The notes below the pieces were generated by a model. The model was not told the DNA's origin. It did no database searches and saw nothing but the letters and a program-made list of their open reading frames with translations. A stretch of DNA of 48,642 nt from Sanchytrium tribonematis (taxonomy: Eukaryota): NCBI GenBank assembly GCA_018985235.1, contig JADGIG010000016.1, forward strand, positions 1 through 48,642, written 5' to 3'. The translations under genes were made by a program, and so were the position numbers. Positions 1,659 through 47,548 of this stretch are shown piece by piece. The stretch's first letter is position 1; each line of letters begins with the position of its first letter.

Positions 1659-3693
1659 ATGTTAAAAGAAAGACTGGAAAAGTGGGAGCGATATTCCAAC
1701 CGATTTAGAGACTCAGTTTCTGAAAGAAAGGCAGATAGTATCAAGGTCACCTTACCTGACGGCAAGATCTTGGACGGCTTGTCTTGGAAGACAACTCCTT
1801 ATGAAATCGCCAAAGGAATCTCCAATAGTTTGGCTAATAAGGTGGTTGTGGCGAAATTAGACAAGAGTGAATTATGGGATCTTCATAGACCATTGGAAAG
1901 AAATTGCGCTTTGGAATTACTTGATTTTAGTACTTCTGAAGGAAAGCAAGTCTTTTGGCATAGCTCTGCGCATGTATTAGGTGAAAGTATGGAGCAAAAA
2001 ATGAAAGCACTTCTTGGGTTTGGGCCACCTCTAGAGGATGGGGGCTTTTTTTATGAAGCAACCTTATTTAACCAAGAAACAACTCAATATGATCGTGTAA
2101 TTTCTCCACAGGATTTTAAAGAACTAGAAGCTCAAATGTCAGAAATTTGCAAGGAAAAGCAACCTTTTGAGCGCTTGGTTCTTACTAAAGCGGAGCTCTT
2201 GGACCTTTTCTACTACAACAAGTACAAGGTTGAATTGATAGAGTCGAAAATACCAGAGGAAGGAAGTACCGTATATAGATGTGGTGATTTGATCGATTTA
2301 TGCAAAGGGCCGCATATACCAGACACTGGGTATATTAAAGCACTAATGTTGACCAAAAATTCAGCTGCATACTGGCTTGGTAAGAAAGAAAATGATACTC
2401 TTCAAAGAATTTATGGTATATCTTTTCCCAGTGCTAAGGAGCTGAAATTGCATAAAAAATTTCTGGAAGAAGCTGCCAAGAGGGATCATCGTAAATTGGG
2501 TAAAGAAATGGAGCTTGTCATGTTCAATGAGTATTCACCGGGTTCTGCATTTTTCTTACCGCATGGAACGCGAGTTTACAACAAACTGGTTGACTTTATT
2601 AAGCTGCAATATCGTGAACGAGGATTTGAAGAGGTCGTTACTCCAAATGTTTACAACACAAAACTTTGGGAAACATCTGGTCACTGGCAGAATTACCAAG
2701 AAAATATGTTCTCTTTTGATGTAGAGAAGGAAAAATTTGCTCTGAAGCCAATGAATTGTCCAGGTCATTGTTTAATGTTCAAATATAGAGATCGAAGCTA
2801 CAGAGAGTTGCCGCTTCGACTTGCAGACTTCGGCGTATTGCACCGAAACGAATATAGTGGTGCCTTATCGGGCTTGACTAGAGTCAGAAGATTTCAACAA
2901 GATGATGCGCATATTTTTTGCACAGTTGCACAGATTAAGCAAGAAATGATAGGCTGCTTAGAGTTTTTGCAAAAGGTGTATGGTATATTTGGTTTCACTT
3001 TCGAGTTAAAACTTTCGACCAGGCCCGAAAAGTATCTTGGAGAGATTGAAACTTGGAATGAGGCGGAAAATCTATTGAAGACAGCTTTAGATGAGTTTGG
3101 AAAAACATGGACATTGAATGAAGGGGATGGTGCATTTTACGGGCCTAAAATTGATATTACAGTCCGAGACGCCCTCCAAAGAGCTCACCAATGCGCAACA
3201 ATACAATTAGACTTTCAACTGCCTCAAAGGTTTGGTTTGGAATACCGTAGCGAGAATGGAATGGATCGTCCGGTGATGATTCATCGAGCCATACTTGGTA
3301 GCGTTGAGAGAATGTTTGCAATTTTATTAGAGCACTTTGGTGGCAAATGGTAGATTTAATTAATTCAGGCCTCTTTGGTTGTCTCCACGGCAAATTTTAT
3401 TTATTCCGGTTGCTAAAAAGTACAACGAATATGCAGAAGAGCTAAGTAAGCGACTCATTAAAGCCGGGTATTTTTCTGAAGTTGATAGCTCCGACTTGAC
3501 ATTGAATAAGAAAATAAGAAATGGACAGCTATTACAGTATAATTTTATCTTAGTTGTAGGTGAGGAGGAAGTTGAAAAGCAAGCGGTAAACGTTAGATCT
3601 CGCGATGATGAGTCGAAAAAGTCTAGAGGAGAAACGGTCTCTTTCGATAACTTCGTAGAGTCTTTGACCCATGCAATGAAAAACTATGAATAA
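1659..3693 (+). CDS. THS1: Threonyl-tRNA synthetase, cytosolic type; exons 1659-3349 and 3369-3693
   Basis: TGS domain, [31 protein letters not shown] and [11 protein letters not shown] motifs; splicing restores [12 protein letters not shown] and joins the anticodon-binding domain. Confidence 0.97.
3350..3368 (+). other. 19-nt spliceosomal intron (ThrRS)
   Basis: GTAGATTTAATTAATTCAG; contains an in-frame TAG; removal restores [11 protein letters not shown]. Confidence 0.93.
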
Positions 3694-3759
3694 AAAAGTA
3701 ATTTTAAAATTTAATTGATTGGTGCGACTTTTATTTGAATCAAGCGGGGACATTTTGGA

Positions 3760-4554
3760 ATGCAATTGTTACTACATGGTCTTCAGCTTCCGATTTCTCC
3801 AGTCCATAAGAATCATCCTGGCTATTACAAATCTTACATATTTACTGGAGATCCATGCACAACAACAGTACCAATCCAACCAAGTGTTTTGGTATTTGAT
3901 ACTTTCAATTGCACCGAATCAAATCTATTTGAACATATTTCCAGCTTAAATATTGTCGGCACAATCAGTAATATAACAGAGGTACCAGAACATTTAAATT
4001 TTTACTTTATGAGCTCTGATGATATACAGCAAGTTTTGGAGGTTGTAAATCAATATTCTGAAATGTCTAGATATCCTATTATCGCAATAACTGAGCCAAA
4101 CCATCTGTGGCAATTGATACTAATTATCCTGCTCATATTGCTGGGTATAAGCTGTATTTTAAGTGGGATTCTACACTGGTATCTCTATACTCCTGAAGAG
4201 CCGCAAGTCAGAATGCTTACAGATTTTCAATTTAACAGCTTTCACAGGATTGACAAAACTACTTATGCCCTCAGCCATGACGATAAAAGCGTGGAAGAAA
4301 ATTTATGCCCAATTTGTTTAGATTATTTAAATATTGAAATTATGACTCAGTTGCCTTGCTACCACTACTATCACTCAGAGTGTATTCAATATTGGTTGAC
4401 AAAGAAATCTTCTTTATGTCCTGTTTGTAAACATGACTGCTTGGACGATGTGAGCGAAGATAAAGGTTTTTTTAGACGCATTTATGAAAAGTGGATGGCA
4501 TGGAGGTTACCCACCGAAGATGAGGATGAAATTGAGCCTTTGCTAAATGCTTAA
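3760..4554 (+). CDS. Transmembrane RING-H2 E3 ubiquitin ligase (RNF13/RMR-like)
   Basis: Hydrophobic TM (LWQLILIILLILLGISCILSGIL) followed by CPICLD...LPCYHYYHSECIQYWL...CPVCK. Confidence 0.85.
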   Translation: MQLLLHGLQLPISPVHKNHPGYYKSYIFTGDPCTTTVPIQPSVLVFDTFNCTESNLFEHISSLNIVGTISNITEVPEHLNFYFMSSDDIQQVLEVVNQYSEMSRYPIIAITEPNHLWQLILIILLILLGISCILSGILHWYLYTPEEPQVRMLTDFQFNSFHRIDKTTYALSHDDKSVEENLCPICLDYLNIEIMTQLPCYHYYHSECIQYWLTKKSSLCPVCKHDCLDDVSEDKGFFRRIYEKWMAWRLPTEDEDEIEPLLNA

Positions 4555-4971
4555 AATACTACAATAAAATTATTTACTCAACATTTTTACAATTCTGACA
4601 TACTTTTTGACCTATGAAGCATACATTTTGGGGTAACCTCGTCGTGGACCGGATTAGGTGCTCTCGTTATAGGACTTCCGACTACTGTGTGATCGACAGA
4701 GTTCAGTCTATTAATTAGTATGGGTTTCGGGGAAATTACTTTTTCGGAAGAAAGCATTACTTCAATTTGCAACAAGGGGCAAGTAGAAGACATCCTAAAA
4801 CGCTCAAAATCGCCATGATATCAATCCTACTGACATCCCAGAACATCGTACTAAAATTCAAAGATTGAAAAAAATTGCATATCTTTCGCTAATCCAATTG
4901 ATAAATTGAGGTTTCCTAGATGTACTATACTTTCTGCTTCATATATCACTTATTTATTCAAATATTGAAGT

Positions 4972-8468: not shown

Positions 8469-8496
8469 ATTTTCAAGACACAGGGAGACCTTTTAT

Positions 8497-9986
8497 ATGG
8501 ACTCGGACGAAGATTTTTACTTTTCGGATCCAGATAGTCAATTTGCAAATGACGAAGGATTTGCAAATTCACCTCCAATGGATCAAGAAAAGGAGCATAA
8601 AACTTTAGATACTTACTTACCATATTCCTCTATAAGCTATCAAATTTGCAAATCAATTCAGCCACTATTACAACAATCCACTTCGACAGTCTCCCAGGTA
8701 TTAAATATATCAGAGGATTATGCAGCGATGCTCCTCCTCCAAAAAAAATTTAAAACGGAAGATTTAATTCAAGAAGCAGTTGGGGGTGAAATGCTTAAAG
8801 CATTAACAATCACAAATAAAAGGTCCTCAAGAAACAACTCCAAAATATGCAACATCTGTTATATAAATGATGTCGTTATAACTTTGTCATGTTCACACTA
8901 TGCTTGTGTAGATTGCATCAAGCATTTCATTAAATCTGGTTTGAATGAAAATACAATAGAGAAATTGACTTGCCTGGAAATGAATTGTGATTACTTCATG
9001 ACTCGCTCATTTATCAAAGAAGTAGACGAATTACTAATTCCCAAGTACGACCAACAATATTCGAACAAATTTATTGACGCATCATTGCAATTAAAATACT
9101 GTGTTAAATGTAATGCAATAATACAAATTAATACATCCCTTAATCTATACACCCAGTCCTCGATTATTCCAATTGTGACATGTGACAATTGTTCCACTCA
9201 ATTTTGTTTTAGCTGTTCGAAAGGCAATCATTTACCCATACCTTGTAGCCAATTAAAAAGGTGGCAAAAGAAGTGCATGGATGATAGTGAGACGGCTAAC
9301 TGGATTCATGCCAACACCAAAGAATGTTCCAAATGTAATAGTACGATCGAAAAGAATGGTGGCTGTAATCACATGGTTTGCAAACGATGCACTTATGAGT
9401 TTTGCTGGGTTTGTATGGGTCCTTGGTCGGAACACGGAACGCAGTGGTACAACTGTTCGAGATTTGAGGAAAATTCGTCTTTAGAGGCTAGAGACAATCA
9501 AGCAAAGTCAAGAGCTGCATTGGAACGCTATCTATTTTACTTTAATAGATACGCGAATCATGAACAATCGTTGAAATTAGACAAGGAACTTTATTTAAAG
9601 ACCGAACTCAAAATGGAAGAGATGCAAAAGCAATCAAATTTATCTTGGATTGATGTCCAATACATGAAGACAGCTGTGGATATACTCGGGAAATCAAGAA
9701 CCATTTTAAAGTACAATTATTTTAATTTAGATTTACATATGCGATGGCCTATTATCTCGCCAAATCGAATCAAACATATATATTTGAGGACAATCAAAGA
9801 GACCTAGAGATTGCTACGGAAAATTTGTCGGGTCTACTGGAGCAGCCAATTACGCAAGAAAAATGTCATGAATTGAGGCAGCAAGTGTTAGACAAAGCAA
9901 GTTATGTGAACGCCCGAGTAGATATTCTTCTAAAAGATACAGTTCAGGGGCTTTCCGAAAGTAGATGGGAGTTTAGGGTAGATTAA
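8497..9986 (+). CDS. Ariadne-family RBR E3 ubiquitin ligase; exons 8497-9710 and 9731-9986
   Basis: RING1-IBR-RING2 (NTKECSKCNSTIEKNGGCNHMVC) plus Ariadne domain; splicing gives LKFTYAMAYYL. Confidence 0.95.
9711..9730 (+). other. 20-nt spliceosomal intron (Ariadne)
   Basis: GTACAATTATTTTAATTTAG; removal corrects the frameshift between ORFs 8497-9807 and 9744-9986. Confidence 0.92.
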
Positions 9987-9991
9987 TAAAT

Positions 9992-11042
9992 TTACTGCAG
10001 TCGATTTATTATTGCGCTTGTAAACTCTGTTGTAGTGGACTTACCGCCTAAATCACCAGTTAGTATTTTCTTATCAGCAATAGTATTCATAACAGCTTGC
10101 TCGACATTGTCGGCATAACTATCTAATTTCATGTGTCTCAACATCATAACTGCAGACAGCAATAAGGCTGTTGGATTCGCTTTGTTTTTAGACGCAATAT
10201 CCGGAGCTGTGCCTAAATAAACGTAGTATACCATGCACACTTTCAAAAATTGAAGCAGAGGTGCCAATATTTCCAGAAGGAGTCAGACCTAGACCTCCAA
10301 TTAATCCGGCGCATAAGTCAGATACAATATCACCATAAAGATTCGGCATTACCATAACTCGATCGGAAAAGTATTCAGGATTTGAGACAATTTGAAGTGC
10401 AGCTCTATCAATTAGCATACTTTCTAGTTGAATAGAAGGATATTTTTTGGAGATTTCCTCGCAAGATTCTAAAAACAAACCATCGCACAATTTCATAATA
10501 TTGGCTTTATGTACTACACAAACTTTGGGGCGTCCCATTTTCTTTGCGTACTCAAAGGCGTAAATTGCAACATTTTCGCTTGCTTGTCTTGTAATTAGTT
10601 TGATACTTTGAACCACACCTGGCACCACCTCATGTTCAATACCAGAGTATTCTCCTTCTGTATTTTCTCGAATCAAAACAGAATTGACATTTTTAAACTT
10701 TGTGGGATAGCCAGGAATAGAAACACACGGACGTACATTGGCGTAAAGGTCAAATGTTTTTCTAAGCAGTAAATTTAAACTCATATGTCCTTTTCCAACT
10801 GGAGTCTCTAATGGTCCTTTTAATGCAACCTTATTTTCATTGATTGATTTAACAGCTACTGGTGGAATTTCAGGTTTTCCAGTACTGGCATTAAATTGAG
10901 GTTCAATCTTCACTCTTTCCCATTCAATGGGAATTTGAGCAGCCTTAAAAATTTCAACTACGCTTGTGGATATTTCCGGACCAATACCATGTCCAGGAAT
11001 CAAGGTAACTTTGTGCATTCTACGTGAGATTTGCTTCAACAT
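9992..11042 (-). CDS. IDH2: NAD-dependent isocitrate dehydrogenase, catalytic subunit; exons 11042-10232 and 10212-9992
   Basis: [16 protein letters not shown] with the catalytic Asp pair; splicing restores FESVHGTAPDIA. Confidence 0.93.
10213..10231 (-). other. 19-nt spliceosomal intron (IDH)
   Basis: GTATACTACGTTTATTTAG on the minus strand; restores VHG-TAPD. Confidence 0.93.
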
Positions 11043-15467: not shown

Positions 15468-16395
15468 CTATATGTGAGACTCATAAATTGTGATTATTCC
15501 AAAAAATATAAACACTAAGCCTCCAACTATTGAAACTAAATTAGTTTTGATTACTAGTTTTAGCTGATATTCTTTGCGCTACAGCATTTCCAAAGGCAAT
15601 AGCAAGTATTGTACAGAGAGCGTGTCCCAAAATAGAGCCTAACACAACAGGGAATAACCCACCACTTGCGCCAAGGGCAATAGTTGATAGCTGGCTTCGG
15701 TCGCCCCACTCTGCTAGAAAAATCATGGTAAATGATTGTATCAATATTGGCGGAATACCACATATTATCAAAAATTTTGATCTTCCAGAAGGATGTAGTT
15801 TACTCTCACCAGAATCCAAGTTATCTTCGTCGAGTTCTTCTTTTGCTTCCTCGTATTCTGCTTTGATCTTATCTGAGCCCCTCTCGTTAATCATCAAGAT
15901 ACCAAATATTATCAATACGACACCGGCTATTATTGCAACAATCTGAGTATGAATTAAGTTGGGAACTAAATGACCCAAAAAGGCAGAAATCAATGTCATT
16001 AATGTCATAGCCAACATATTCGCTGTAACTATAATCCACTTCGGATGCCTCATACCCAAAATTGCACACAAAAAGAAAGTCTTGTCTCCAATCTCACTCA
16101 AAAAAACACTTCCTAGCGATATCCATACGAATTTCATATTATAAAAATTGGGAAGAGATTGTATTTCTTCTGCTGCTTCCTCCAAGATTTCATTATTTTC
16201 TTTTAGAGAATCTTGCTTATTTGCAATATCAAAATTTTTGATTATAATTGCGAGGAGTTTCTTTTGCTCTTGATCCAACTTTATATAAAATTCTTCTAAG
16301 TCTTTCCTTGTCCAGCTGGGTATACCAATTTTCTTACTCTCGGTGCCTGATAAACTTGTAAGAAGTATAAAATGGAAAAAAATATTCAGTTTCAT
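15468..16395 (-). CDS. GDT1: GDT1/TMEM165 (UPF0016) Ca2+/Mn2+ transporter; exons 16395-15555 and 15535-15468
   Basis: Two E-x-G-D-(K/R) motifs (SEIGDKT, AEWGDRSQ); splicing adds the missing last TM ISIVGGLVFIFFGII. Confidence 0.93.
15536..15554 (-). other. 19-nt spliceosomal intron (GDT1)
   Basis: GTAATCAAAACTAATTTAG on the minus strand. Confidence 0.9.
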
Positions 16396-19205: not shown

Positions 19206-20553
19206 ATGAAAACAAATTATTCACTAATCGAGGAGATAGGAAATGGGTCATATGGAACAGTCTACAAGGCCGTTAATAATACAACCGGCGCACTCGTTGC
19301 TTTAAAGCAGGTTAGTATGGAGGATGGAACAATAATGAAAGAAATTGAATTTATGAAATCATGCAACAATGAGTATATCATCGGGTTGGATGATTATTAC
19401 ATTGAGGAAGAAACTTTGTATATTGCCATGGAATTCTGCCCTGCTGGTAGTATTGCTGATGTAATGAAGTATACTGAGTTAACTTTGAACGAGAAACAGA
19501 TTCAGTCTGTTGTAAGAGATGCCTTGTATGGTCTCGATTATCTTCATCAAAGATTAGCTATTCATAGGGACATTAAGGCTGGAAATTTGCTTTTAACAAA
19601 ACAAGGAAGAGTAAAACTGGGCGATTTTGGAGTCTCCGCAAGTTTAAGTGACGCAGTAAGAAAGAGAAACACAGTTATTGGGACGCCATATTGGATGGCT
19701 CCAGAAATAATTCAAGAAATAGGATACAATACATCGGCGGATATTTGGAGTTTAGGCATAACAATTATTGAGATGGCAGATTCTAAACCACCTTTTCATC
19801 ACATTCATCCCATGCGTGCCATTTTCATGATACCAAATAAACCACCGCCTACAGTCCAAGATCCTCCTAAATGGAGTTCGAAATTTAATGATTTTGTCAA
19901 ATGTTGCCTGGAAAAAATTCCGGATGAAAGACCAACGGCTAGACAATTGATAAATCACGATTTTGTAAAAAATGCGCCTGAATCTAATATCCTTTTAGAG
20001 CTAGTGCAGTTGTCACTTGAAATTAAATCTCGACGTAAATTTGAAAAAACTTCAAAAAGTTCCGAAAATATCGAAAAAGAACTAGATCAAGTCCCGCAAG
20101 GAACTATAAGAGGTGGAAACAATTCTGGGACAACAGTAATTCGTTCAGATGATAGCTCAAAATATGGTACTACAGTATATAATACCACAAGGATCGTAGA
20201 TGGCCATGACTCCGGAACAATGGTTCTAAAATTAGATGAAGACGACAAATCGGCAACCATACGCCCAAATAGGTACAATATTATTGCATCAAATTCTAAG
20301 ACAATTAGGCCATCGCAAACGAAAATAGACGTACTTTCAACTTACTAAGACTACCTTAATCCCTACAACTCAAAAAATGATTCCTGATTTGCTTGAAAGT
20401 ATAGAGAAAATGGAAAAAATTGAAATGGAGGAATACCTTCGAGTTGCTGATCGCAATCTAGAAAGAGAGCTGGATCAAATTAAGGATAAATATGCAAAGA
20501 AAAAGGAGCCTTTAATTTCGTCGATCCAAGCAAAGGAGAAAAAATTGGGTTAA
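19206..20553 (+). CDS. STE20-family Hippo/MST1-2-like kinase with C-terminal SARAH domain; exons 19206-20330 and 20350-20553
   Basis: HRDIKAGNLL, KRNTVIGTPYWMAPE and IHPMRAIFMIP; exon 2 encodes EEYLRVADRNLERELDQIKDKYAKKKEPLISSIQAK (SARAH-like). Confidence 0.88.
20331..20349 (+). other. 19-nt spliceosomal intron (MST kinase)
   Basis: GTACTTTCAACTTACTAAG; contains the apparent stop; removal opens a 68-codon SARAH exon. Confidence 0.85.
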
Positions 20554-22768: not shown

Positions 22769-23165
22769 ATGAATTCACAACCTCCACAAAATAGAAAACA
22801 TCAATGGTGCCTGGACACGCTTCAAACTTGTAGGGATATTTGTCATCCAACTACAGATATTTCGTGTAACGACGGTACATTAAATTATACCTGTCCTTGT
22901 GATATCAGTAAGCAGCCAAAATCTATTGAGATATATTCTTGCGGTTATGCTGTTGATGTATGCAAATACAAATGTCCAACGTATGCCATATTTATTTAGC
23001 AATGATACAGTGTGTTCAAACTACTGCGAAAGCCAAAGATGTTTACCACAAATTACTATAGTTCAAAAGCCAAATAATAACTCCGCTATACAGTTTGACG
23101 CAGGAGTTGCGGAGATGTCAGTATCTGTTATTTTTTATGTTTTGATGATAATTTTATTAAAATAA
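22769..23165 (+). CDS. Small Cys-rich protein with C-terminal hydrophobic anchor; exons 22769-22980 and 23000-23165
   Basis: Spliced 125 aa protein with 12 Cys (WC..TC.DIC...C..GTLNYTCPC...C...C...C...C...C...C) and tail SVSVIFYVLMIILLK. Confidence 0.75.
22981..22999 (+). other. 19-nt spliceosomal intron (Cys-rich protein)
   Basis: GTATGCCATATTTATTTAG; joins two overlapping short ORFs and continues the Cys spacing. Confidence 0.85.
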
Positions 23166-29300: not shown

Positions 29301-31138
29301 CTGTGAAAAATCACTCAATTCTTACGCAAAGGAGCTGTTTACGAGCCAGTCATTACAGTCACAAAAACTAATTAGAGCATTTTATAATTGCAATGATTTT
29401 ATACCCATTTTAGACATATTGTTCAAATACATGATTCTAATTAACAGATTAGATCTTATTGCTGAACTGTTGCACATTCTTAAAGACTTAAACTATAGAA
29501 TATGTGACGATGAGTTAAATTTGATATTCGATTATTTGCTCGGGACAAACGAATTTCGACTTTTGTACAATTTGTATCCTTATTCTAAAATGTTTTTGAG
29601 ACTTGTGCACCAAAATAGTGAAAAGTCTCTATCAGAAATCAAATACATTCTCAGCCGAAATGATTGCAAAGATTTGATAAATGACAACATGGATTTGATA
29701 AATACCATTAATAATGGAGAACTTCTAAATATGATACAATCACATATCAAATCTAAACCTGACAAGAACATAGCCGAAACATTAGATGTGGCTGATTTCT
29801 CCAACGAAGCGCTGGAAAGTGTTGATTCAAGATATAAAATTGAGAATTTCAGTGACAAATTTAGTCACAAGTACCCTACAATAAGAAAACAGCCTTCTTT
29901 TTTTGCTACGGAACAGATCATATCTCAGCTAAATCTGTGTGATCCAACAAAATCCTACTACGCTCTCAAAGAATTTGAAAAATGTTTGCTCAGTGATTCT
30001 ATCTCTACAGCTCAATATTTAGACTCTTTGATAAAAGTTATGGTAGATAATTTTAATAAGCATTTAAATTTAAGTTTACCGGCAAATACTAGGCTGATTA
30101 AGGAGTTGTGTGCTGTATTTTTATCTTTATCAACTGACAGTAATTTGATAAGCGCTTTAAGCGACTCCTCATTAGAAGAATTCTTTCGCTGCTTGCTGTT
30201 TAATCTCAAGTCTGTTAAAGACTCTAAAATTCAAAGTTTTATTAATTCTGTTATTGTCAAATCGTTGTACAACTTAAATAGAAATCGCGCATTTCAGTAA
30301 TTTAAATTAACATAGATTGCTTTTTAAGCTGTTGACAGACACTTGTAATTTGACAAATGTGGAAGAATTTGACCAAAAATGCACTCTAATTTCAAAATGT
30401 ATGTTGAAGCTGACAAAAGATGTACAAATTAAACATGCTGATCGCACCAATTACTTAGATTTAAAAACTTTGCTGTATGTAATGCATGAGTTTTTTGGGT
30501 TTCTACAATCTGTAGGAATGGATCAAAAAAACAATGATAATTCTGAAGTCCCTTTGCGTTCAGTGAAAACGGTGCTTGTTTATTTATGTAAAACCATTGG
30601 TGATGAATTTCAAATCTTTCTCGATAGATGTTTGGACGAATTGAATGATGACATCTTTCAATTTTTCAAATCCTACACGGATAAGGGTGAAAACCAAGGA
30701 AATGATAGTAATTCCTCGAGTGGCCAGAACAACCATAAGATTGATCTTGAAAGTATTTTTTTTGAAATTATTAACCAAGGAACGGTTTCTACTATACTCG
30801 AAAAGGTAGTTGGCCTGAAAGGCCAATATTCCATATCAGATAAGCGACTTAAAGATATTTTAGATAATATTGAAATCGATCCTACAACCAAAAATTTTCT
30901 TTTCAAGCATTTGAATTTATACGAAAATGAACTTCAAATCCCGGAATTTGCAATGTTGGATTCTCATACCAATGTTTTCAACAGACCACTTAATTCAAGG
31001 TTAAAACTTCTTCAAAACAAACTGAATAATCTGCGAGATTCAACGAATGCGCTCGATGCAGAAATTGACGAGGAGCCCGCATCTATCAGCTCTATCCAAA
31101 ATCTAGCAGATCGTTTAAAAAAAATCCAAAGCCAATAA
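26317..31138 (+). CDS. XMAP215/Dis1/Stu2-family microtubule polymerase (multiple TOG domains, divergent); exons 26317-30296 and 30316-31138
   Basis: Repeated TOG starts (HWKIRKE, KWKIKFEAL, DWKTRLE, QWKLRKEAL), DKNVNV and DSNKNL, C-terminal KCMLKLTK and PLRSVKTVL. Confidence 0.85.
30297..30315 (+). other. 19-nt spliceosomal intron (XMAP215)
   Basis: GTAATTTAAATTAACATAG; joins ORF 26317-30300 in frame to ORF 30317-31138. Confidence 0.88.
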
Positions 31139-31150: not shown

Positions 31151-32430
31151 ATGGCACCATTTTTATATCTAATCGTTATTGCTTCAAACGTCTCGTCTGT
31201 TTATTATGATTACAGCGCGACAGCAATTATAGATGACATCATCGCGTCTCAGACTTCAAATTCAAGTTTAAATCCAGAGAGTTTAAAATACTCTACAGCA
31301 TCTACGTCTACCATTTCAAAAGTTTTTGTCGATTTATCGCCTCCTACCATCCCGGATAATCCCTCGTTAATGGACCAGCTAGAAGCTAACCAAACTTGTT
31401 CTCTGACAAGGGTAGACCTGAACAGATGCTTAACAGATAAAATTAGCTTGTTTATAAATACGAGGTTTGAATGGTATTTTATGTTGGTGTTGAATATTTG
31501 TTTATTGATTTTGGGAATGGTCTTGTTTGCTAAAATCAAATTGAAGGAACTTGTAATGAAGAAATCAAAAAAAAGAACGGCAGGAGCCTGGGCAAAAGTT
31601 AGCTTCATTTTTATTTTGCCAATTAGTCTTTTCAATTTGTTGATCTTATTAACTCCCAAATTTCCCGCTGCGTGTGCATATTTGCCTTCTATAATGGGAT
31701 TTGCTCTTATATGTTTATCAGCATTGCACCTGATGTCTTTGATAAGAATTATCGTGCGACTAGTAGTTATCAGACCTCAGCTTGTAAGTACTAGTATGAA
31801 AGCGACGCCAGGAAATCCAGATGAAGATTACGTTGAGCGAGCCCCCGAAAAATCTAAAGGGGCATTGTTAATAGATATATTGTGTCAGGTTGGTGTCATT
31901 GCAGCAATTCTGGTAGATTTTGCGATTTCAGGTTCACTTTTGGCAACCAATCCAATGACTATTGGGCAACTTCGATCTAGCAATGGAATTTCAGACTTAT
32001 TGACTTGTAGACCAGCTTATCAAGACGAATTTGTCAAGTCATTCTTCATCCCAAAGATATTAGTATTCACCGCTATCGTGGCGATTTCGGTATTTTTAAC
32101 AAATAATCCGCAATATTTTGCCAGCGCAAAACTCGACGACGTACCAGAGGGTAAAGAAGACACTGCTTTAGCTCTGAAGTCAATGTAGAATATTATTCAT
32201 ATAGTGCTTTTTATATATTGTTTGTTCTTCTTGCAGTGATGTCTTCTTTAGCAATTCATTTTTTGTACCAATACGACGATACTCATCCAATCTACTCCAT
32301 GTTGCTAAAGGAAAATTTACAGTTGGAACTGTTTTGCTCATTCATAACAATGCTTATCATGACTTTAATCTACATTCATAACTTAGAATACAAGAATAGA
32401 ATTAAAGAAGTGAAATTATTTACCTACTAA
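31151..32430 (+). CDS. Seven-transmembrane protein, class C (7tm_3/GABA-B-like) GPCR-like; exons 31151-32184 and 32205-32430
   Basis: Signal-like N-terminus; five TMs in exon 1 and two more after splicing; Cys at the top of TM3 (CAYLPSIMGFAL...IRI) and a Cys in the putative ECL2 (LTCRP). Confidence 0.55.
32185..32204 (+). other. 20-nt spliceosomal intron (7TM protein)
   Basis: GTAGAATATTATTCATATAG; removes the stop and joins in frame to ORF 32218-32430. Confidence 0.85.
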
Positions 32431-34989: not shown

Positions 34990-36481
34990 TCAGCCAATTA
35001 GTAGTTCTAGTATTGATATAAAAAATTCGTTACCGAAAGAAACTAATTCTTCCCTGGAAATGCGATAAAGTTCTGGATTATTATTGATTGCATACTTTCT
35101 GTAATATAAAAAACCAGCCATAGGTTGGCCGAAAACGCAAAACACACACCAAAATATCATATTTCCCAGAGTGTTAATACCTTTAAAACCCGGTCTATAA
35201 AATGTTCTATACCACTTGTCAAACCTTTCCGTTAATATGATTAACGGAACCTGGCCAAAAATAGCCCAAAAAGCCCACATGTTATAAATGCCGGTAGGTA
35301 CAGCGACAATCCATTCGTGAAATATAGCCGAAATCAAAAATACAAGTAGTCCTGCTTGAAACTTATTGATCTGAACTGTCTCGCCTTTTTTATTCTTAGA
35401 TTGCAACAAGGGAACAAAAACATGTCTCTTTAACCACTGGTGTACGGGTTGATTCCTATATTAATAATAAAAACCAAAGTCTCCAGTATGTTGCCAACTC
35501 ACTAGAATTCCACCATTCTCTATAAAATAGACGGTCTCCAAACTGAGTAATCTCAGCCCAAAAATACAAATAAGCGTGAAAAAATCCATAAAACATGGCT
35601 AGCCAAATTAAAGATACAGATAAGGAAAGTTTTAATATGCGTTCCAACAACTGAAAAGAAGTCATTTCTCTAGATTTTATCATTTGAATAGAATTTTCAA
35701 GAGTTGGCTGGGCATATTGCTGGGCCAAAATTAGAATAAAACTCATACTCAAGCAAAATTCAGTGAGATATCTAAAGGCTTTCAAAAAACTTCGCGATGG
35801 AGCTTTGGGGTATTCATACTGAAAGCAAAGAGTAGGAATCAGCAAAAATATGCTGTAATCTTTCAGCGTGACCTGCCTATGTTCATTTAATGTAACAAAT
35901 GCAAAACTAAAAAGCTTTAACACCAAAATGGTAGCAAATAATAATGCTCCAATTCCTATTGCAGGATTCTTACAATAACGTCCTACAATGTAGGTTTGAT
36001 CCACTAATAATGATAGGGCATTGACTGAGTGCCACCTCATGGAATTTCGAAAGAAAAACTGATTTTTCCGACCTGCTTCAATAATGAATCCTGAAAAATA
36101 ATGAAATATATGAAAGGCAATGCAGCAGACTAGAAATTGAGCGTCATATAAGCTTAAAGTAGGAAGGTGGACCAAAATTCCGTACTTGGACATATTTTCC
36201 ATTACTAACCGAAAGACCATCGCTAAAGAAAGAGATCCCAATAAATTTACGAAACCAGAATAGTCACTATTAGCAAATTTGTCTAATGGAGCGAGCCTTA
36301 TTTGAGTGTGTACCAAACCGGTGTGAGGTAAAAAGACAGGTTTTTCAACGATAGCCACAGACTTTTCAGTTAAATCAGACTGACTTCTAACAATAGTAGC
36401 ATCACTTCCTTCATCACTAGTAGAAGTAGGAATTCGTTTCCTAACATATTTTCGTTTAATTACTTTTTGTGTCTGTGTCAT
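34990..36481 (-). CDS. MBOAT diacylglycerol/sterol O-acyltransferase (DGAT1-type); exons 36481-35475 and 35455-34990
   Basis: PTLCFQ..YP, FGDRLFYREWWNS and SAIFHE; splicing restores YWRLWNQPVHQWLKRHVF. Confidence 0.92.
35456..35474 (-). other. 19-nt spliceosomal intron (DGAT1)
   Basis: GTTTTTATTATTAATATAG on the minus strand. Confidence 0.92.
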
Positions 36482-36737: not shown

Positions 36738-36777
36738 GGAGTATCAAAAAATGTTTTTCTAAATGTTCTAGGCCGAA

Positions 36778-37509: not shown

Positions 37510-39145
37510 TTATTCACTAAAATTGTATCTCCAAAGTCTAGCCCGACAATCTCCGCTAGCAGTTGCAAACACTTTTTCAGTTGGAGACACAGCGACACAA
37601 ATAACTGAATTTTTGTGACCTAAATGAAAACAAAAAACCTTGAAGAATAAATTCTGATTCACCAGTATGAGGATTCCAATATTGCACAGTTCTATCTTTG
37701 CTAGCACTCAGTATTCTGTGTCCATCGTTGGTAAAAGAGACACTTAAAACAAAATCTTTATGACCAGTTAAGGTTTTGAGACATTCTGCTTTTCGAGTAG
37801 GGTAATCTCCCAGCCTCCAATACTTAAGTGTCTTATCTAAGGATCCACTTGCTAAATATTGACCATCAGGTGATATAGCTATGCTATAGACGCTGTCTGT
37901 GTGACCGACTAGAGTATCAAGCAGTTCACCGGTAGCAACATCCCAAATTCTTACAGTTCTATCTAAAGAACCCGCAGCAACGATCTTTTGGGAAGGGTGC
38001 CAGCAAACACCGGTCACACCACTATCTTTAGCATTCATGTCAGGGTTCTCAAACGTCTTTATACATTCACCAGAACTTAGCAGCCATATCTTGCAGGTTT
38101 TATCCCCACTACCTGATAATATATATTGCCCATCAGGTGAGAACTCTAAGCTATAAATATCTGACTTGTGACCTTCTAATCGCATTGCCACCTCTGAGTT
38201 TTGAATATTCCATATGCGAACTACCCTATCTTCAGCTCCAGTTGCCAAATAAACCGAATCAGGTGAAAACGACAATGCTCGTACATATAGAGCAGTTTGG
38301 CTCATGGTGTCACTAAGTTGAGTCAGCTCTCTCCCAGTATTAGTATTAAACACTTGTGCTGTAGGATTGCAGCCAGTAGCAAACAGTTGTCCATCTCTAC
38401 TAAATCGAACGCAGCAAACTACTGTTGAATGACCAAATGCATTCACGTGTTGTAAAGTGAGTTTCTTCTGCAGTCTTGGATGTTGAGCTGCTTCCCAGTC
38501 ATCTCCCGAAATTTTGAATTTCGGTGGGATACTGCTAATGTCACATGCATTATAGAAATGGAGACAGACAGCCGGACTGATCGTGTCATTTTGAGGGTGT
38601 TGTTGATGGTGCTGTTGCTGCTGTTGTTGCTGTTGCTGTTGCTGGTGTTGTAATTGCAACTGTTGCTGATGTTGCTGTTGCTGATGCTGTTGGTGCTGCA
38701 CTTGCTGATGATGATGTAAATGTGACTGTTGGCTTGGTATTCCAATTTTTTTGTAGCTGGATGGTGCCAAATTACTAGTGTTAAGAGCTCCACCAGCTTG
38801 CTGCAAAGAAGCACTTGTCAATTGTTGAAGACCAGCGGTGGCATGTAATGGAAGTTGAGTCGAAATCTGTGGTAATTGCTGCGGCAAAGTAACTTGAGGC
38901 TGCATTTGCGTTTGAGAAAGAGACTGTAAACCGCCTTTTTTCTTTAACTCCTCCTCATAAAATTGCTTCATTCGTAAATGCTGTTTTTCTAATTCAAGTA
39001 TTGTTGCATGGTAATGTTGCAAGTCTTGCAAATGCATTTGCAATTTTCCGTTTACATCTGCATCTCCACTATTTCGAATAAGCATATCACATTCTTGTCT
39101 CATAGCATCAAGTAAATCATAAACTCGCCTGTGGGATGGATGCAT
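37510..39145 (-). CDS. TUP1: General transcriptional corepressor Tup1; exons 39145-37639 and 37619-37510
   Basis: Tup_N ([12 protein letters not shown]...MKQFYEEE), polyQ linker, WD40 repeats ([22 protein letters not shown]); splicing restores [12 protein letters not shown]...[12 protein letters not shown]. Confidence 0.95.
37620..37638 (-). other. 19-nt spliceosomal intron (TUP1)
   Basis: GTTTTTTGTTTTCATTTAG on the minus strand. Confidence 0.93.
38598..38731 (-). repeat. Imperfect CAG/CAA/CAY trinucleotide tract encoding a Gln/His-rich linker of Tup1
   Basis: Plus strand shows runs of tgc/tgt/tgg triplets; protein [45 protein letters not shown]. Confidence 0.9.
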
Positions 39146-39491: not shown

Positions 39492-41319
39492 TTACAACTG
39501 AGAAGAATCGAATCCCAACGAATGAAGAAAAATATTAACATTCGCAACAGCCCTTGAGCTGGCAACTTTGTTAAAATCCTTTGCAGGAGTATAAGTATAT
39601 CTCAAACTCTGACCAACAGTAAAAGATGCATCTTTCTCCGCAGACGCATTCCACATTACTCTATCGCGAACTTCCGAAACAATTTCTGTCTGTATTTCGG
39701 CATCAGCACTAATGACCATAGCGGCAAGGAATTGCCATATGAAGCTATCATTTGTTAATTTCAAAACATAATCTTCACAAGAAAGCGAATTGGTAAAATG
39801 GGATAATATTTTTGGATCAGGAAAATACACATACTGAGGTGGGAACGCAATAGCAACATACAATTTAATTTGCTGGTACATTTCATTAAACAATAAGTCA
39901 AACTTTTGATTGTTCTTCTCTGAGGTTTTTAAGACCTCAGCACGGCTTAAAATTGCGGTTAAGATTAAAATTCCAGAACTGGTTCGAACTACCGCTGACA
40001 AAGTTAGTCCATTTAGCAAAATTTCTAAACACTCAGTTAAATCTTCCCATTCCATATCCATAATAGTATTTTGAATGACATTAAAAGCAGTAGACTGCCA
40101 AATATCAAAATTTTGAAGATATTCTAACACAGTATTGAAATGTGATTCCAAATAATTCGGCAAATTCTCGATTTTGCTAGCTAGCCCTGAGAGATATTCA
40201 TTTATCGCATGTAGGGAATTTTGGACTTGATCCCACGTAACAATCAAAGCTGAGAATTGCAAGGACTTCAGCAAAGATTTTATGATCAAGATACAGTGCG
40301 AGTCAGAGAGATATCTAAATGTCCTGGGCATGACTTTCATCATCTTTCTAAAATTTAATAGTTGCGAAAATTGAACCGAACTAAATAAGAAGCATATACC
40401 TGTTCAATATACATTCGATTGTATCAGACAATTTTTCGGAGTAAAAAAACACATTCTTTTCAATATCATTTGATGTAAGCTGTGTTTTTGAATGAGAGAC
40501 GTCATGATTTTGCAATCTTTTAGCTTTTCTCTTCCAAGTTTCCAACTCAATGACAGATTCGTAAATATCCTCAATATACTTGAGCGGCAACTTACCGTCT
40601 AAGACGCCTTTATTCTCATAAGCGTCAATATTGACAATTGGAATGTCAATGGCTTGCCTTGGTTTTTTACTAGTGGCAGAGCTTACTTTACCTAATGCAC
40701 CTTCTATGACAAAGCTTATACCTATATTTGCTTTTTTCTTTTCAACAATTTTTTCCAAAGTTTGATTAAATGTTTTCTTTTTCTTTTTGGAGCCTTTGAC
40801 TAATAACTGAAGATAATCTCCACTAGATTGTCTGCTTTTATCACCCAGTTCCTTTCTAACCATAAGGTATATGTTGTTATAAAAGTCGTCATCATATTCA
40901 TCAGTTATCGCTATCTGTGACATAGCCATTTTAAGAATGAAATTCTGGTCATTAGTGTTCATAACAAATCCTTGCTTTTCGGATTGCTTAAAAGATTTAG
41001 CTTTCACCTGGATGATGTCTTTCTCAATGTCTTCAACTGTTGTGGGTGATTTCAGGTTCTTCGCAAATTCTTGTTTTACTAATAATTGATATTCGATCAT
41101 TTCCAAAGTGAGAGGTTCGTCAATGTTGTGCTCAAATTCGTCACTCACTGACTCTTCGCTAATGCTAGTTTTCAAATTCGATTTCTTTGACATTGTGACG
41201 CTGATTTCACGGAGTAAAATCATCGGACTATAATCGCTGATACTTATGGAATTTGTCAATGATTTTTTGAAAATTAGATAGGAAAAAAATTGGAAATTTT
41301 TCTCATGTTGCTGAATCAT
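39492..41319 (-). CDS. PAT1: mRNA decay factor Pat1; exons 41319-40400 and 40380-39492
   Basis: MNTNDQNFILKMAMSQI..DEYDDDFYN, EGALGKVS...KKPRQAID, LWQFLA-like IWQFLAAM, NVNIFLHSLG; splicing gives FSQLLNFRKMMKVMPRTFRYL. Confidence 0.85.
40381..40399 (-). other. 19-nt spliceosomal intron (PAT1)
   Basis: GTATATGCTTCTTATTTAG on the minus strand. Confidence 0.88.
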
Positions 41320-41326
41320 TTCGTAT

Positions 41327-44300
41327 TTATTTTGAATCTAACTTCAATAGCATTAATTTGAAAGTTTCCCCTAAAATTTCTTGATCTTCTTCTATATCAA
41401 CATTCATTTTCTCACTTATTATGAGCGGTACAGATTTAATAGACTGTTCAATAATATTCTTTTCTAAGTCAAGAACAGAGAGCAAATTTTGACAAGACTC
41501 TTGCATGATAAAATATCTTACATTATCAGTTGGAACCATATTTGCTTTTTTTCTTAACCTTTGGACACGATTAATCAATTCACGAGCAAAACCTTTTCTA
41601 TAGAGTTCATCATCTATCTCACAATCTAACAAAACAATAACTTGACCGTCCATGTTTGCGTTATATTTTGAAAGCTCCGGGGTTGATTCAAAGAATCGCT
41701 GAACAACAATCTCGCTATCATCAAGCACATGACCATGTATAGTGATTTTTTTGCTCGATAAAAAGGACTTAATTTCGCTAGTAGACAAAGTTTGAAGAGC
41801 TTTTTTGACTTTAGGCATGTCTTTCTTCAATCGTTGCCCCAAGATCTTGAAATCAGCCTGTAACTTATACTTTACAGAATACTTTTCTTCATCTGCAGTC
41901 AAAAGAATTTCCATAACATTTAATTCCTAAATTAATTTAAAATACCTCTTTGATGTAAACCGATAACAACTCAATATCATTCAAGTAGGATTGATCACCA
42001 TGAATAACGATCAGCTTTCTGAGAGGGGTCTTGAGTGTGAGGCCTTGCTTTTCCCTAATAAGCCGCACCAATTCAATGACAGACTGCATTCTTGAGATAC
42101 CTTGCTGAATGCTCTCGTCTTGATACTTCAATTCAGCATTTGGGTACAGCAAAAAATGAATAGATTGACTTTCATCATCATATTTACCTTCTCCGCAATT
42201 TTTTGAAATATCGGAATCCTTTATAAAGGGCTTCAATTGCAAAAATATGTTTTCTGCCATAAAAGGAGTGAACGGTGCCATCAATCTGGAAATCGTCAAA
42301 ATCACCTCAAACAGTGTATTTAGTGAATGAAGAGTATCTTCTTCGCCAAATTCCCCCTTTAATCTTTTTCGATTAAAACGAATATACCAATTAGTCAATT
42401 GGTCAATAAATAACAGCAGTCTCCCAACCACTGTATAGAGTCTGTAATTGGACATTTCCTCTCTAACAAATGTTATTAGACTTTGTTCTGAAGCCAAAAT
42501 CCAGCGGTCCATAAGATTTTCACTGCTTAAATAAGTGCTATCATAACTATATTCAATGTTGAACTGAGACGTTAAAAGATCGGTTTGTAGCTTGAAAAAC
42601 TTAAACGAATTATACCAAGGTAAAAACACTTTGGATAATAGTTCTTTGACACCCTCCTCCTTAAATTTTAAGGAATCCGCACGAACTACTGGAGAATTAA
42701 TGAGATAGAGTCTCAAAGCGTCAGCGCCATATAAATTTATCACTTTTGAGGGCTCCGGATAATTTTTTAGTCTTTTCGACATCTTTTTGCCATCTTCTGC
42801 GAGAACCAAACCATAAACAATCTGATTCTTAGCAGGTGGAGTATCAAATAAATGCGTACTCAAAACTAAAAGAGTGTAGAACCAACCCCTGGTTTGATCT
42901 ATTCCTTCGGCTATAAATTCAGCAGGAAACGTCGCTTCCATCTTATCTTTATTCTCAAACGGATAGTGTTTTTGAGCGTACGGCATGCTTCCACTTTCAA
43001 ACCAACAGTCGAAAACCTCGTCTATTCGTCTCAGTTTTCCTTTTCCCTGTCTGGAAGGAATCTCCAGATGATCTATGAAGTGTCGATGAATATCAGTTAT
43101 TTCAGATTTTCCAGTTAATTCCTCTAGTTCTTCTACACTTCCTACGCAAATCATTTCTTCCAAATCATCACTAACCCAAACCGGGATCGGGGTACCCCAA
43201 AATCGGTTTCGACTAACGTTCCAATCTATTGCATTTGAAAGCCAGTTCTGAAACCTTTTCTCTTGAACAAAATCCGGGACCCATTTGGATTTTCTGTTAT
43301 TACGAAGCAAGTCATCTCTAACTTTTTCTACCTTTACAAACCATGAGGGAAAAGCTTTGTAAATCAAAGGAGTTTCCGATCTCCAGCAGAAAGGATAACT
43401 ATGAGTTAATGTGCCTTGTTTGATAAGCCTATTTTCAGCTTTTATTTTTCTGCAAATCAATTTGTCAGCTTCCTTTATATAAATACCTTTGAAATCTACC
43501 ACAGCATCCATGAATTTACCTTCCTCATCTACAGGACAAGGAAGTGAGGAAATGTCTGTTCCAATTAAACCGTATTTGAGGCAAACTCTGTGGTCATCCT
43601 CACCAAATCCAGGAGCCTGATGGACAATGCCTGTACCCGAATCGTTGGTAACATACTCATCACACAAAACTCGAAATCCCTCAAGCTTGGAAAAGTAATC
43701 AAACATTGGCTTATACTTTTGATTTTCCAAATCCTTACCAGAGAAAGTCTCCAAAATAGTAAAATTTGCTTTCTTTGGATCCTTGTACAATATATCCAAT
43801 CTTTCCTTGCCCAAAATTAGAGGAATTGATGACAGAGACTCATCAAAAATTTTGATGTATTCATATCGTGGATGAACACATAAGGCCAAATTGGAAGGCA
43901 AGGTCCAAGGAGTTGTAGTCCAAGCCAAAAAAGCAGCAGAATTGTCCAGTAATGGAAAAGAAACTACAACAGCAGGATCAACTACGTCTTTGTAATTTTG
44001 ACCAGCTTCAAAATTGCTGATCGGCGTATGGCAACCTGTCGAATAAGGCATAACTCTACAACCTCTGTACACAAGATCCTTTGCCCAGAGACTCTTAAAT
44101 GCCCACCATACAGACTCCATAAAACTCATATTCATAGTTTTGTAATCATTTTCAAAATCAATCCAACGACCAACACGAGTAACTGTGATTTCCCATTCCT
44201 TTGAGTATTTCATCACAAGATCTCTACAATGCTCGTTGTATTTTCCTATACCCATATCAAGGACATCTTGTCTACCCTTAATATTTAACTTCTTATCAAT

Positions 44301-45566: not shown

Positions 45567-45622
45567 GGTAAAAGTAGTCAATTGTAATTGATCGATTTAT
45601 TAACTAAATAATTGAAATAAAC

Positions 45623-45862
45623 TTACTGAAAAACTATTGTCCTACCTCGTTTTCTACAACTTGCAGATTCATCTCTTGGAAGCTCAATCCATCTATGATT
45701 GAAGCAAGTTATCCAGTGTTTTTCAAGGCAATATCCCACACCATTTTCACAATAATCGCTCAAATTTATTTCTTCTTTACGTTGGGTTTTTGGAGGGTAA
45801 ATGTCCCCTGGTTGAAGGAGCACTCTAACTACTTCTGAACAAACAAATGAAAACAAAATCAT
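45623..45862 (-). CDS. Small putatively secreted Cys/Trp protein (CBM19-like spacing)
   Basis: Short hydrophobic N-terminus MILFSFVCS; CENGVGYC...WITCFNHRW...SC motif. Confidence 0.5.
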   Translation of the reverse strand: MILFSFVCSEVVRVLLQPGDIYPPKTQRKEEINLSDYCENGVGYCLEKHWITCFNHRWIELPRDESASCRKRGRTIVFQ

Positions 45863-45931
45863 GTTTTGAGTGAGATACGAGAAATAAATGAAGCGGAGTA
45901 GCCAATCATATCATTCTTTTAATTAAATTTT

Positions 45932-47548
45932 TTATTTGCACAAGGCGGATTCATAAATTTTCAGCTCAATCAAAGCATCTTCCATGTCTTCTCTCATTCT
46001 ATCTTCGAACGAATCTTTAAGAGCATTGACAATCAATGCAACTCTTTCTAGCATTTCCAATCTATCAGAGACAGAAGCAGCAGATTTCGCTTCAAACGCT
46101 AAGACATCCAAATCAAACTTTTGATGTATTTTCTCCAATTTATCCGCTACCGGAATGTCTTCGTTTGTCATCGACTCTACTAAATTGACCAGTTGATTAT
46201 ACTTTTTTAATAATATTGATCCATTTTCCTTCGTTTGTTCAAAGCTAGCAAGTTTACCTTTTAATTCGATCTTACACTTTTCAATCGCTACTAATATTTT
46301 GTCCACTGATTTTTGTTCCAAAGTAGCCACATTTAATTTGGAATCTTTAACCTTTGTTCTCAAAGAATTAATTTTAATTAGAATATCACTTTGCAATTGC
46401 GAGGAGCCATTCAAATACTTCGTCATCTCATCTTTTATCTCATCCTGTTGCCTATCAAGATCAGTTTTGCTAAAATTTCTAAAGCTTTTTGTAGTTTCAA
46501 CTATGGCATCGGCAATTTCGTCGAAACAAACAAAATATTCGTCAGGTAAGTCTTGAACATTTACCGCCTGAACTTTGGTTTTTATAACAATAAAGTCGTG
46601 CGTTGTGGGGCTTTCTCCGTCTTGTCCAAATGGTTTCCCATATATCCCTACTAATTTGGACAAGTGATCAACCGATTTTTTAAACGATTTCGTTTTAAAT
46701 AATTCTGTGTCCTGCGGTTTATATTTAAAGCATTCTTCAATATGTTTTTCCATTAAACTGTGAAGTATGTTTTTTCCTTCCTAAATTAAAATAAATTTAC
46801 AAGCATTTCACCGATTAAAGGGAAACCTTTTTCTTTGGCCAGCTGGGAGGGCGTTTGCGAAAGGCTATTAACAATCTTCGGATCTGCCCCGTGCTTTATT
46901 AGAAATCGAACAAAAGGAATTTTACCTTTTCCACTGACAGCATGTAAACTAAATTAGCAAATAATACACTGTATCTCCTTGCTCAAATTTAACATCTACA
47001 AAAGTACCGATTTTGATAACTGAGCTTCTTTTTGTTTTTGTATTGATGTCCACATTATGATCCAAATAAAGCTTTAATATATCTAATGATTTATAGCAAA
47101 CGTAATGAATAGGCAATACCCCCCAACTATTGAATTGAAATAGTAGTTGCGGTGCCCTTTCAACCACAAACTTCGCGATATGCAATCTGGGCTTACTACT
47201 GAGGCCTAGTTCATGCAAGACATTGTTTTCGTTTCTATCGACACAATCCAATCGAGCACCATATTCTAAGAGTAGTTGAAATATAGTATCATGCTCTTGC
47301 CAAATTGCGTAAAGCAAAGCCGTTCTAGATCCCTCTGTGCTTGTTGAATGATTTGGATCGGCACCCTTATCCAATAACAGCTTTACAATTCTTATATTTC
47401 CTTGTTTTGTAGCTTCCATTAATGGAAAAGTTTGATCTCCTAAAGTAATGTTAACATAACCAGGTAATTCCGATATAATTTCAGAAATCTTATTGTAGTT
47501 CTCTTCCCTGATGTATCTCATAAAATCCTCTTGACTTACCCTAGACAT
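45932..47548 (-). CDS. Ankyrin-repeat protein with C-terminal helical/coiled-coil region; exons 47548-46968, 46948-46801, 46780-45932
   Basis: Ankyrin repeats (PLMEA..GNIRIVKLLLDKGADPN); splicing restores GDTVLHAVSGKG...LIKHGADP and links to ORF 45932-46753. Confidence 0.85.
46781..46800 (-). other. 20-nt spliceosomal intron (ankyrin gene, intron 2)
   Basis: GTAAATTTATTTTAATTTAG; removal gives ...IGEML-EGKNILHSLMEKHIEE. Confidence 0.82.
46949..46967 (-). other. 19-nt spliceosomal intron (ankyrin gene, intron 1)
   Basis: GTATTATTTGCTAATTTAG; restores the ankyrin motif GDTVLH. Confidence 0.9.

Follow-up and report, generated by a model that had tools for sequence, protein, structure and literature searches.

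Predicted introns of 19–20 nucleotides concentrated towards the 3′ ends of genes in a window of sanchytrid DNA

A stretch of 48,642 nucleotides (nt) of Sanchytrium tribonematis DNA (contig JADGIG010000016.1), analysed at its full length and referred to here as the window, holds 15 predicted introns of 19 or 20 nt that are concentrated towards the 3′ ends of their genes, and this concentration is real rather than an artefact of reading open reading frames (ORFs). Intron-poor genomes are usually 5′-biased (PMC532390, PMC8476143, PMC3488318), and the case for poly(A)-primed intron loss rests mainly on this bias. The initial annotation of the window had called its pattern opposite to that of other intron-poor genomes. 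The contrast with yeasts and microsporidia holds, but the wording was too broad, since the ciliate Fabrea salina is also 3′-enriched (PMC13685798). The window thus presents a fungal counterpart of Fabrea, with a 19–20-nt intron class of which no earlier report was found, and the assemblies already available are enough to settle its mechanism. No report of sanchytrid introns or splicing was found in the literature outside subscription journals, and in the main text of the sanchytrid genome paper (PMC8371127) the word "intron" occurs in the reference list only.

On sequence grounds the window is sanchytrid DNA, from a fungal group described here as parasites of algae: its proteins group with those of Amoeboradix gromovi, and its GC content (~35% overall, 31–42% per kb) and high gene density fit Sanchytriomycota. 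The threonyl-tRNA synthetase (ThrRS) of the window shares 84% identity with a protein named A. gromovi (P0004), and its first ORF has three close relatives at 84–85%, the remaining matches listed standing at ~56–65%. These four proteins form one clade with a support of 100 in a quick tree, from which one locus (L059) was left out and which did not resolve the position of the sanchytrid clade.

Intron positions along the coding sequence

Gene models for the window comprise 39 whole genes with 44,574 nt of coding sequence (CDS); the 15 GT–AG introns are spread over 14 of them, the other 25 having none, which gives an intron density of 0.34/kb. The relative positions reported by the initial annotation were reproduced from these models, and its summary was confirmed: 13 of the 15 introns lie in the 3′ half of the CDS (binomial P = 0.004; Kolmogorov–Smirnov test against a uniform distribution, P = 0.007), none lies in the first third (P = 0.002, random placement over the 39 whole CDSs), and all are within 1 kb of the stop codon, at distances ranging from 68 to 997 nt (P = 0.002, random placement of 15 introns over the 44,574 nt). 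With genes taken as units, 13 of 14 fall in the 3′ half (P = 0.0009). The last 1 kb before the stop provides 29.5 kb of exposure and contains all 15 introns, and the other 15 kb contain none. An excess near the start codon, as in yeasts and microsporidia, is absent: the first 500 nt after the ATG, which make up 18 kb or 40% of the CDS, hold a single intron (P = 0.005). What is found in this one window is 3′ enrichment of the Fabrea type.

The presence of an intron also depends on gene length, with introns in one of 17 genes of up to 800 nt versus 13 of 22 longer ones (Fisher P = 7 × 10⁻⁴). Setting aside 10 orphan-like or fast-evolving genes leaves 29 genes with 11 introns, all of them in the 3′ half.

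Intron structure and the search for further introns

Twelve introns measure 19 nt and three 20 nt, which places them in the ultra-short class (<30 nt with a narrow spread). When they are aligned at the 3′ end, A at −6 and T at −8 are present in 15/15; A at +3 and T at −3 are each found in 13/15. Their GT and AG ends and the restoration of the frame on removal predict U2-type spliceosomal introns. A term search of the A. gromovi annotation, as far as 4.0 million characters (PMC8371127, supplement file 4), returned the spliceosome genes PRP8, U2AF35, U2AF65, and CWC22; an Rfam scan of the window gave no match and no snRNA. The A at −6 is a putative branch point fused to the acceptor, a reading adopted because the branch A of Stentor coeruleus also lies at −6 (PMC9505925). 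By hand back-translation, the read-through peptides of P0002, P0003, and P0235 fit inserts of 20, 19, and 19 nt, respectively, with A at −6. Phase 2, with 8 introns, outnumbers phases 1 and 0, with 4 and 3. If a phase-2 intron is 19 nt long and ends in TAG, it brings its own in-frame stop, an effect not clearly above chance: in-frame stops inside introns, seen in 11/15, do not exceed expectation (P = 0.18 with equal phases, 0.45 permuted).

Homology supports the junction in 10 of the 15 introns. A spliced aligner written for the purpose recovered exact boundaries for three of these. In THS1, encoding ThrRS (CDS 1659–3693, + strand), the intron at 3350–3368 (19 nt, phase 2, GK-W|P; relative position 0.84, 325 nt from the stop) was delimited by alignment to three fungal or aphelid ThrRS proteins. 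That of STT3 (CDS 20651–22745, +) lies at 22083–22101 (19 nt, phase 1; 0.69, 644 nt from the stop) and was the sole one that the aligner placed when given P0228, the A. gromovi orthologue with an unbroken frame, and that of DGAT1 (CDS 36481–34990, −) lies at 35456–35474 (19 nt, phase 2, RL-W|N; 0.68, 466 nt) and was aligned to P0236 and P0239. Further DGAT1 "introns" proposed by the aligner (15–441 nt) were discarded, since the frame is open and badly aligned there and the two references disagree about them.

Pfam domains run across the junction in seven further introns. In the Ariadne RBR ligase gene ARI1 (CDS 8497–9986, +), the Ariadne domain continues across the intron at 9711–9730 (20 nt, phase 2; 0.83, 256 nt). 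The NAD-isocitrate dehydrogenase gene (IDH, CDS 11042–9992, −), with its intron at 10213–10231 (19 nt, phase 1, VH-G|T; 0.79, 221 nt), matches the Iso_dh profile at 1–278 and, beyond the junction, at 277–348. A MST/Hippo-like kinase gene (CDS 19206–20553, +; intron 20331–20349, 19 nt, phase 0; 0.85, 204 nt) has a SARAH domain in exon 2 (E = 1e-4), although its motif is the weakest of the set with a leave-one-out score of 2.7. Exon 2 of the TUP1-like gene (CDS 39145–37510, −; intron 37620–37638, 19 nt, phase 1; 0.93, 110 nt) finishes a WD40 repeat at profile positions 10–38 of 39, and PAT1 (CDS 41319–39492, −; intron 40381–40399, 19 nt, phase 2; 0.51, 889 nt) matches its profile at 393–599 and then, beyond the junction, at 635–860. 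In the isoleucyl-tRNA synthetase gene ILS1 (CDS 44561–41327, −; intron 41927–41945, 19 nt, phase 0; 0.81, 600 nt), which has the best motif score of the set, Anticodon_1 is followed by DUF5915 across the junction. The ankyrin/coiled-coil gene (CDS 47548–45932, −) contains two introns, the first of which (46949–46967, 19 nt, phase 2; 0.37, 997 nt) is followed by an exon that picks up an ankyrin repeat at profile position 6.

The remaining five are predicted from the motif and frame joining. They comprise the second ankyrin intron (46781–46800, −; 20 nt, phase 0; 0.46, 849 nt; leave-one-out score 11.4) and those of a small Cys-rich protein (CDS 22769–23165, +; 22981–22999, 19 nt, phase 2; 0.56, 166 nt), a multi-pass (7TM) membrane protein (CDS 31151–32430, +; 32185–32204, 20 nt, phase 2; 0.82, 226 nt), an XMAP215/TOG protein (CDS 26317–31138, +; 30297–30315, 19 nt, phase 2; 0.83, 823 nt), for whose exon 2 homology search gave no informative match, and GDT1 (CDS 16395–15468, −; 15536–15554, 19 nt, phase 1; 0.925, 68 nt), in which the domain ends at 62/75 before the junction and exon 2 has no Pfam match.

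Ultra-short introns are known in ciliates, microsporidia, mikrocytids, dicyemids, and myxobolids (PMC13644364, PMC10245619). The closest likeness is to Fabrea salina, which combines a streamlined genome, tiny introns, and a conserved branch-point A with an extreme 3′ enrichment that has been attributed to the loss of 5′ introns (PMC13685798, PMC9004412), and in which about two thirds of the genes are intronless (68%, versus 25/39 in the window); a ciliate survey described it as the lone exception among low-density species (PMC13685798). Fabrea is, however, a ciliate with introns mostly of 15 nt and of independent origin, and no mechanism was demonstrated for it either. Stentor, whose branch A is nucleotide 10 in introns of 15 nt and nucleotide 11 in those of 16 nt, matches the −6 geometry (PMC9505925), whereas its introns are shorter (15–16 nt) and strongly 5′-biased (PMC13685798). 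Microsporidia and budding yeast resemble the window as intron-poor genomes of the fungal lineage, Encephalitozoon having the branch motif TAAYTT (PMC10245619, PMC2483917, PMC8476143). Yarrowia, Giardia, and Trichomonas likewise anchor the branch point to the acceptor with no separate polypyrimidine tract (PMC2483917), but with strong ACTAAC-type motifs and longer introns, while only T(−8) and A(−6) are invariant in the window. Mikrocytids (16–17 nt), nucleomorphs, and myxobolids (median 22 nt) are reduced parasites or endosymbionts whose introns keep to a narrow range of sizes close to the lower limit (PMC10245619, PMC13644364); they differ in having many introns per genome, and the available text describes no 3′ confinement for them.

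A bias of this kind could be produced by a small sample or a regional effect, the distribution being flat genome-wide or 5′ introns residing in ribosomal-protein genes, in 5′ untranslated regions (UTRs), or in a class of greater length or different build missed by the scan. We consider this unlikely. In its favour are the sample itself (15 introns from one 48.6-kb window), the self-trained motif, and the scan range given below. The window also has a sole ribosomal-protein gene, RPS31, which is intronless here and in two relatives, and two STT3 ORFs of a relative in ENA (P0227, P0229) start part-way through the gene (at 0.53 and 0.57 of the protein length), which may hint at an upstream break. 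Against it, several tests give P values of 0.001–0.007, 11 of the 14 intron-containing genes start within 100 nt of a neighbouring CDS, and no 6–7-residue insertion relative to the relatives was seen in five genes compared. The IDH ORF of an ENA relative, moreover, breaks after residue 232 into a V-initiated tail (relative position 0.67, 336 nt from the stop); the window has no intron at this site, and this sole located out-of-sample position is also 3′.

A frame-blind motif scan points the same way. It covered all G[TC]…AG stretches of 17–25 nt on both strands with a motif trained on the same 15 introns, and its top 17 entries, in self-trained ranks, are these introns and two nested variants. 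Under leave-one-out scoring the introns obtain values between 2.7 and 13.2, 14 of the 15 reaching at least 4.6. Three extra candidates score at least 4.5, two of them at the stop of a short ORF and one in conserved ThrRS coding sequence; GC-donor candidates scoring below 6 fell outside the reported list. The only 5′ candidate, a weak one (47923–47944, +; 22 nt, score 3.7), lies ~30 nt before the ATG at 47975 and overlaps the start of a divergent DUF2340 gene. An acceptor-only scan yielded 83 matches including the 15 known introns. Two of them lie just 5′ of an ATG, with no GTA donor within 120 nt, and the other 36 sense matches, counted without individual checks, are in open frames. The caution in the initial annotation that 5′ and in-frame introns may be hidden is therefore largely eased by the want of any convincing one in the frame-blind scan, but it persists to the extent that the scan was limited to 17–25-nt introns of the same build.

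The best extra candidate (45604–45626, −; 23 nt, score 6.0) overlaps the stop of a 79-codon ORF and would add to the 3′ skew if real; its nested 19-nt version (45604–45622) sits in the 3′ UTR. Several other candidates were rejected. A possible 5′ intron at 36751–36769 has no A at −6 and is not among scores of at least 3, the stretch 3537–3553 is conserved ThrRS coding sequence, and a GC–AG 19-mer upstream of the ORF at 45054, read by hand, joins no useful frame. A 6–8-residue insertion near residue 136 of ThrRS is coding sequence common to all four sanchytrid-clade proteins.

Ancestry of the introns and explanations of their position

The explanation we favour, tentatively and at somewhat less than even odds, is biased loss in which one late intron was kept in long genes for nonsense surveillance linked to the exon junction complex (EJC). 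Introns of an intron-rich ancestor would have shrunk to 19–20 nt, most survivors probably being ancestral, and loss would have run through a spliced-RNA template. A late intron would deposit an EJC and thereby place the upstream CDS under nonsense surveillance; the benefit would scale with the length of that CDS, introns further upstream would be superfluous, and a short gene would derive little advantage. The proposal assumes EJC-dependent nonsense-mediated decay (NMD) in sanchytrids. One rule then covers three features, namely no intron more than 1 kb from the stop, almost none near the ATG, and a strong dependence on length. Models of this kind reach an Akaike information criterion (AIC) of 259–261, versus 262 for the best independent gradient (position-squared), 267.5 for distance to stop, and 272 for a uniform distribution; the order is the same in the 29 conserved genes (187–189 versus 191, 198, and 203). 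The A. gromovi annotation has rows for MAGO, Y14, eIF4A3/FAL1, CWC22, UPF2, and three UPF1-like proteins as well as 11 reverse-transcriptase rows, and therefore both the means of producing a loss template and the machinery for EJC-based selection are present in this relative. Ten of the 11 reverse-transcriptase rows are weak bacterial-type COG3344 matches on several contigs, which may represent a retroelement family or contamination. Budding yeast and microsporidia, the 5′-biased cases, are not known to have the core EJC.

An alternative that is nearly as probable is a mutational gradient without selection, in which an RNA template erases 5′ and middle introns better than those of the last kb and late introns survive by default. 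Reverse transcription primed internally or by the template itself might be its route, as might repair from nascent transcripts from which the upstream introns have already been spliced out. An independent (position/length)² model comes within 1–4 AIC units of the best, a small gap that equally weighs against the favoured explanation. Lower 3′ loss and internal priming have been discussed for ascomycetes and Cryptococcus (PMC532390, PMC2395259), and a gradient would also accord with the reverse-transcriptase rows above and with the preferential loss of 5′ introns in Fabrea. STT3 and IDH introns vary between relatives, so no single intron looks essential, and intron content is still changing among sanchytrids. 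On the other side, pure distance to stop fits worse (AIC 267.5 versus 259–262), because short genes carry almost no introns although no part of them is more than 1 kb from the stop, and runs of T6 show no pattern, with none upstream of the intron in 7/14 genes.

The ancestry assumed in the favoured account, loss with one late intron kept, was examined at individual sites. The fungal ancestor has been reconstructed at ~7.6 introns/kb (PMC8476143). ThrRS ORFs of the three other sanchytrid-clade lineages stop at the same site, GKW, and a comparison with more distant genes, as the initial annotation had suggested, bore this site out. Among the best 80 metagenome loci, 59 span the site, and 31 of the 59 contain one or more introns that reach 40 nt. 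In L067 and L078, two loci of almost identical sequence, an intron of 79 nt occupies the codon and phase of the window intron (604/2), and in the quick tree these loci fall outside fungi and animals, as a distant eukaryote (protist). A chance match would amount to a few per cent by a hand estimate (~20–30 distinct sites among ~1,900 possible). Among the loci listed, the upstream ancestral sites 269/0 (17 loci), 351/0 (6), and 461/0 (10) are all missing from the window gene. For the DGAT1 W|N site the outcome was divided: the likely sanchytrid relative P0235, with 81% identity over the query, ends at the same W, but matches elsewhere were nil.

Other results weigh against the favoured explanation. 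ThrRS was the only one of three sites examined outside sanchytrids to be matched. At the STT3 site none of 86 short ORFs matched, most breaking six codons earlier, and at the DGAT1 site none of 149 non-sanchytrid matches agreed, 8 breaking just before it and about ten within a few codons beyond it. A. gromovi, where P0228 is an unbroken 689-residue ORF, lacks the STT3 intron, as does the ENA relative (P0227, P0229), and the more 3′ ThrRS site 666/1, listed for 18 loci, was lost in the window gene. Nine of the 22 long genes have no intron. A single intron per gene, as the initial annotation stated, is found in 13 of 14 genes, yet this is no significant excess (P = 0.07 and 0.17 under two nulls). 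The likelihood models were devised after the data had been seen, and the one ribosomal-protein gene sampled belongs to the class that bears 5′ introns in yeasts and microsporidia. No UPF3 term turned up in the A. gromovi annotation within the portion searched, and the presence of EJC genes does not imply EJC-dependent NMD. In the ancestral-site search, Ariadne gave one match, with its break elsewhere.

The absences at STT3 and DGAT1 would instead suit recent gain, in which tiny introns were inserted near 3′ ends after near-total loss, for example by reverse splicing and poly(A)-primed reverse transcription reaching ~1 kb. Such 3′-biased gain has been proposed before (PMC3488318), and the phase-2 excess (P = 0.02 versus an assumed 45/30/25 split, 0.09 versus an equal one) may be added to it. 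This explanation is nevertheless rated slightly below a sampling effect, and hence as unlikely. The ThrRS site and phase are common to a distant eukaryote, and old 5′ introns ought to have escaped such reverse transcription as well, but none are left. Neither terminal duplications of 4 nt (0/15, the GDT1 flanks being one base off in this test) nor a repeat family was detected among the introns, the twelve 19-mers sharing a mean of 2.65/7 internal identities. No Blastocladiomycota gene structures were identifiable in the outgroup samples in which the sites were sought.

The least probable of the explanations, and one we regard as improbable, is that a terminal intron is selected to aid cleavage, polyadenylation, or export, given intergenic gaps of a few tens of bases. 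In its favour, no intron is more than 1 kb from the stop, the EJC genes might act in export instead of NMD, and such a role has been suggested for ciliate 3′ introns (PMC13685798). The initial annotation had raised this coupling, but A(A/T)TAAA, present at −10 to +40 nt of the stop in 31/40 genes and often overlapping a TAA stop, occurs near the stop in 11/14 genes with introns versus 20/26 without (P = 1.0). Equal frequencies of poly(A)-like signals in both classes thus lend no support to a link with 3′-end formation, and the scatter of distances (68–997 nt) does not favour one either. Nor can a last intron be a general requirement, since 25/39 genes do without, STT3 of A. gromovi is unbroken, and ThrRS 666/1 was lost.

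A bolder form of the favoured explanation is that sanchytrids as a group have reduced every long gene to a lone terminal intron of 19 nt, retained as an EJC licence for nonsense surveillance, the mirror image of yeast with possibly the shortest introns in Fungi; this we consider doubtful. Lynch and Kewalramani are said to have predicted in 2003 that a lone intron has a 3′ optimum, and if the bolder form were true, sanchytrids would offer a natural test of the prediction that it belongs near the 3′ end. A fungal case with public assemblies makes testable whether position is set by the mechanism of loss or by selection for a last intron, and Fungi would gain a predicted 19–20-nt intron class with Stentor-like branch geometry.

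Truncated public proteins and other features of the window

Sanchytrid proteomes were predicted by TransDecoder ORF calling on genomic contigs (PMC8371127), a procedure that leads to exon-1 ORFs being recorded as whole proteins. In all 11 cases checked, the exon-1 ORF indeed stands as a cut-off protein in a public collection (for STT3, from an upstream ATG). As about a third of the window genes are cut off in this way, any loss of a C-terminal domain deduced from these proteomes should be checked again. No sanchytrid contig was present among the matches listed in viral, metagenome, and genome contig collections, the best segment identity among the metagenome matches listed being 70% and the best 80 genome loci being bacterial.

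The ThrRS frame is open 5′ of its ATG (1641–1661, +), reading NKLLRR-M where the relatives have NKVLRR-M (P0002) and MLRR-M (P0003), and a CTG or TTG at 1647/1650 could start a mitochondria-targeted isoform. Many intergenic gaps measure 0–50 nt. The first ATGs of the divergent genes ABZ1 (11652, +) and PAM17 (11688, −) overlap by 37 nt, and one true start may be internal. A gap of 417 nt between convergent genes (4555–4971) has no ORF of 80 codons and no Rfam match. The intraflagellar transport gene IFT46 (202–818, −) has a short N-terminus. Upstream of it there is an ATG at 818, with GTAG next to it at 809; no AG stands at the usual distance, and a frameshift or an odd intron is possible. A long Q/H-rich tract with raised GC is found in the TUP1-like gene (38595–38725, −). 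Finally, the gene neighbourhood looks conserved: ThrRS (P0004) and STT3 (P0228) of A. gromovi carry the same contig name, and the pairs ThrRS/IDH (P0002, P0217) and ThrRS/RPS31 (P0121, P0231) in relatives likewise hint at a kept neighbourhood.

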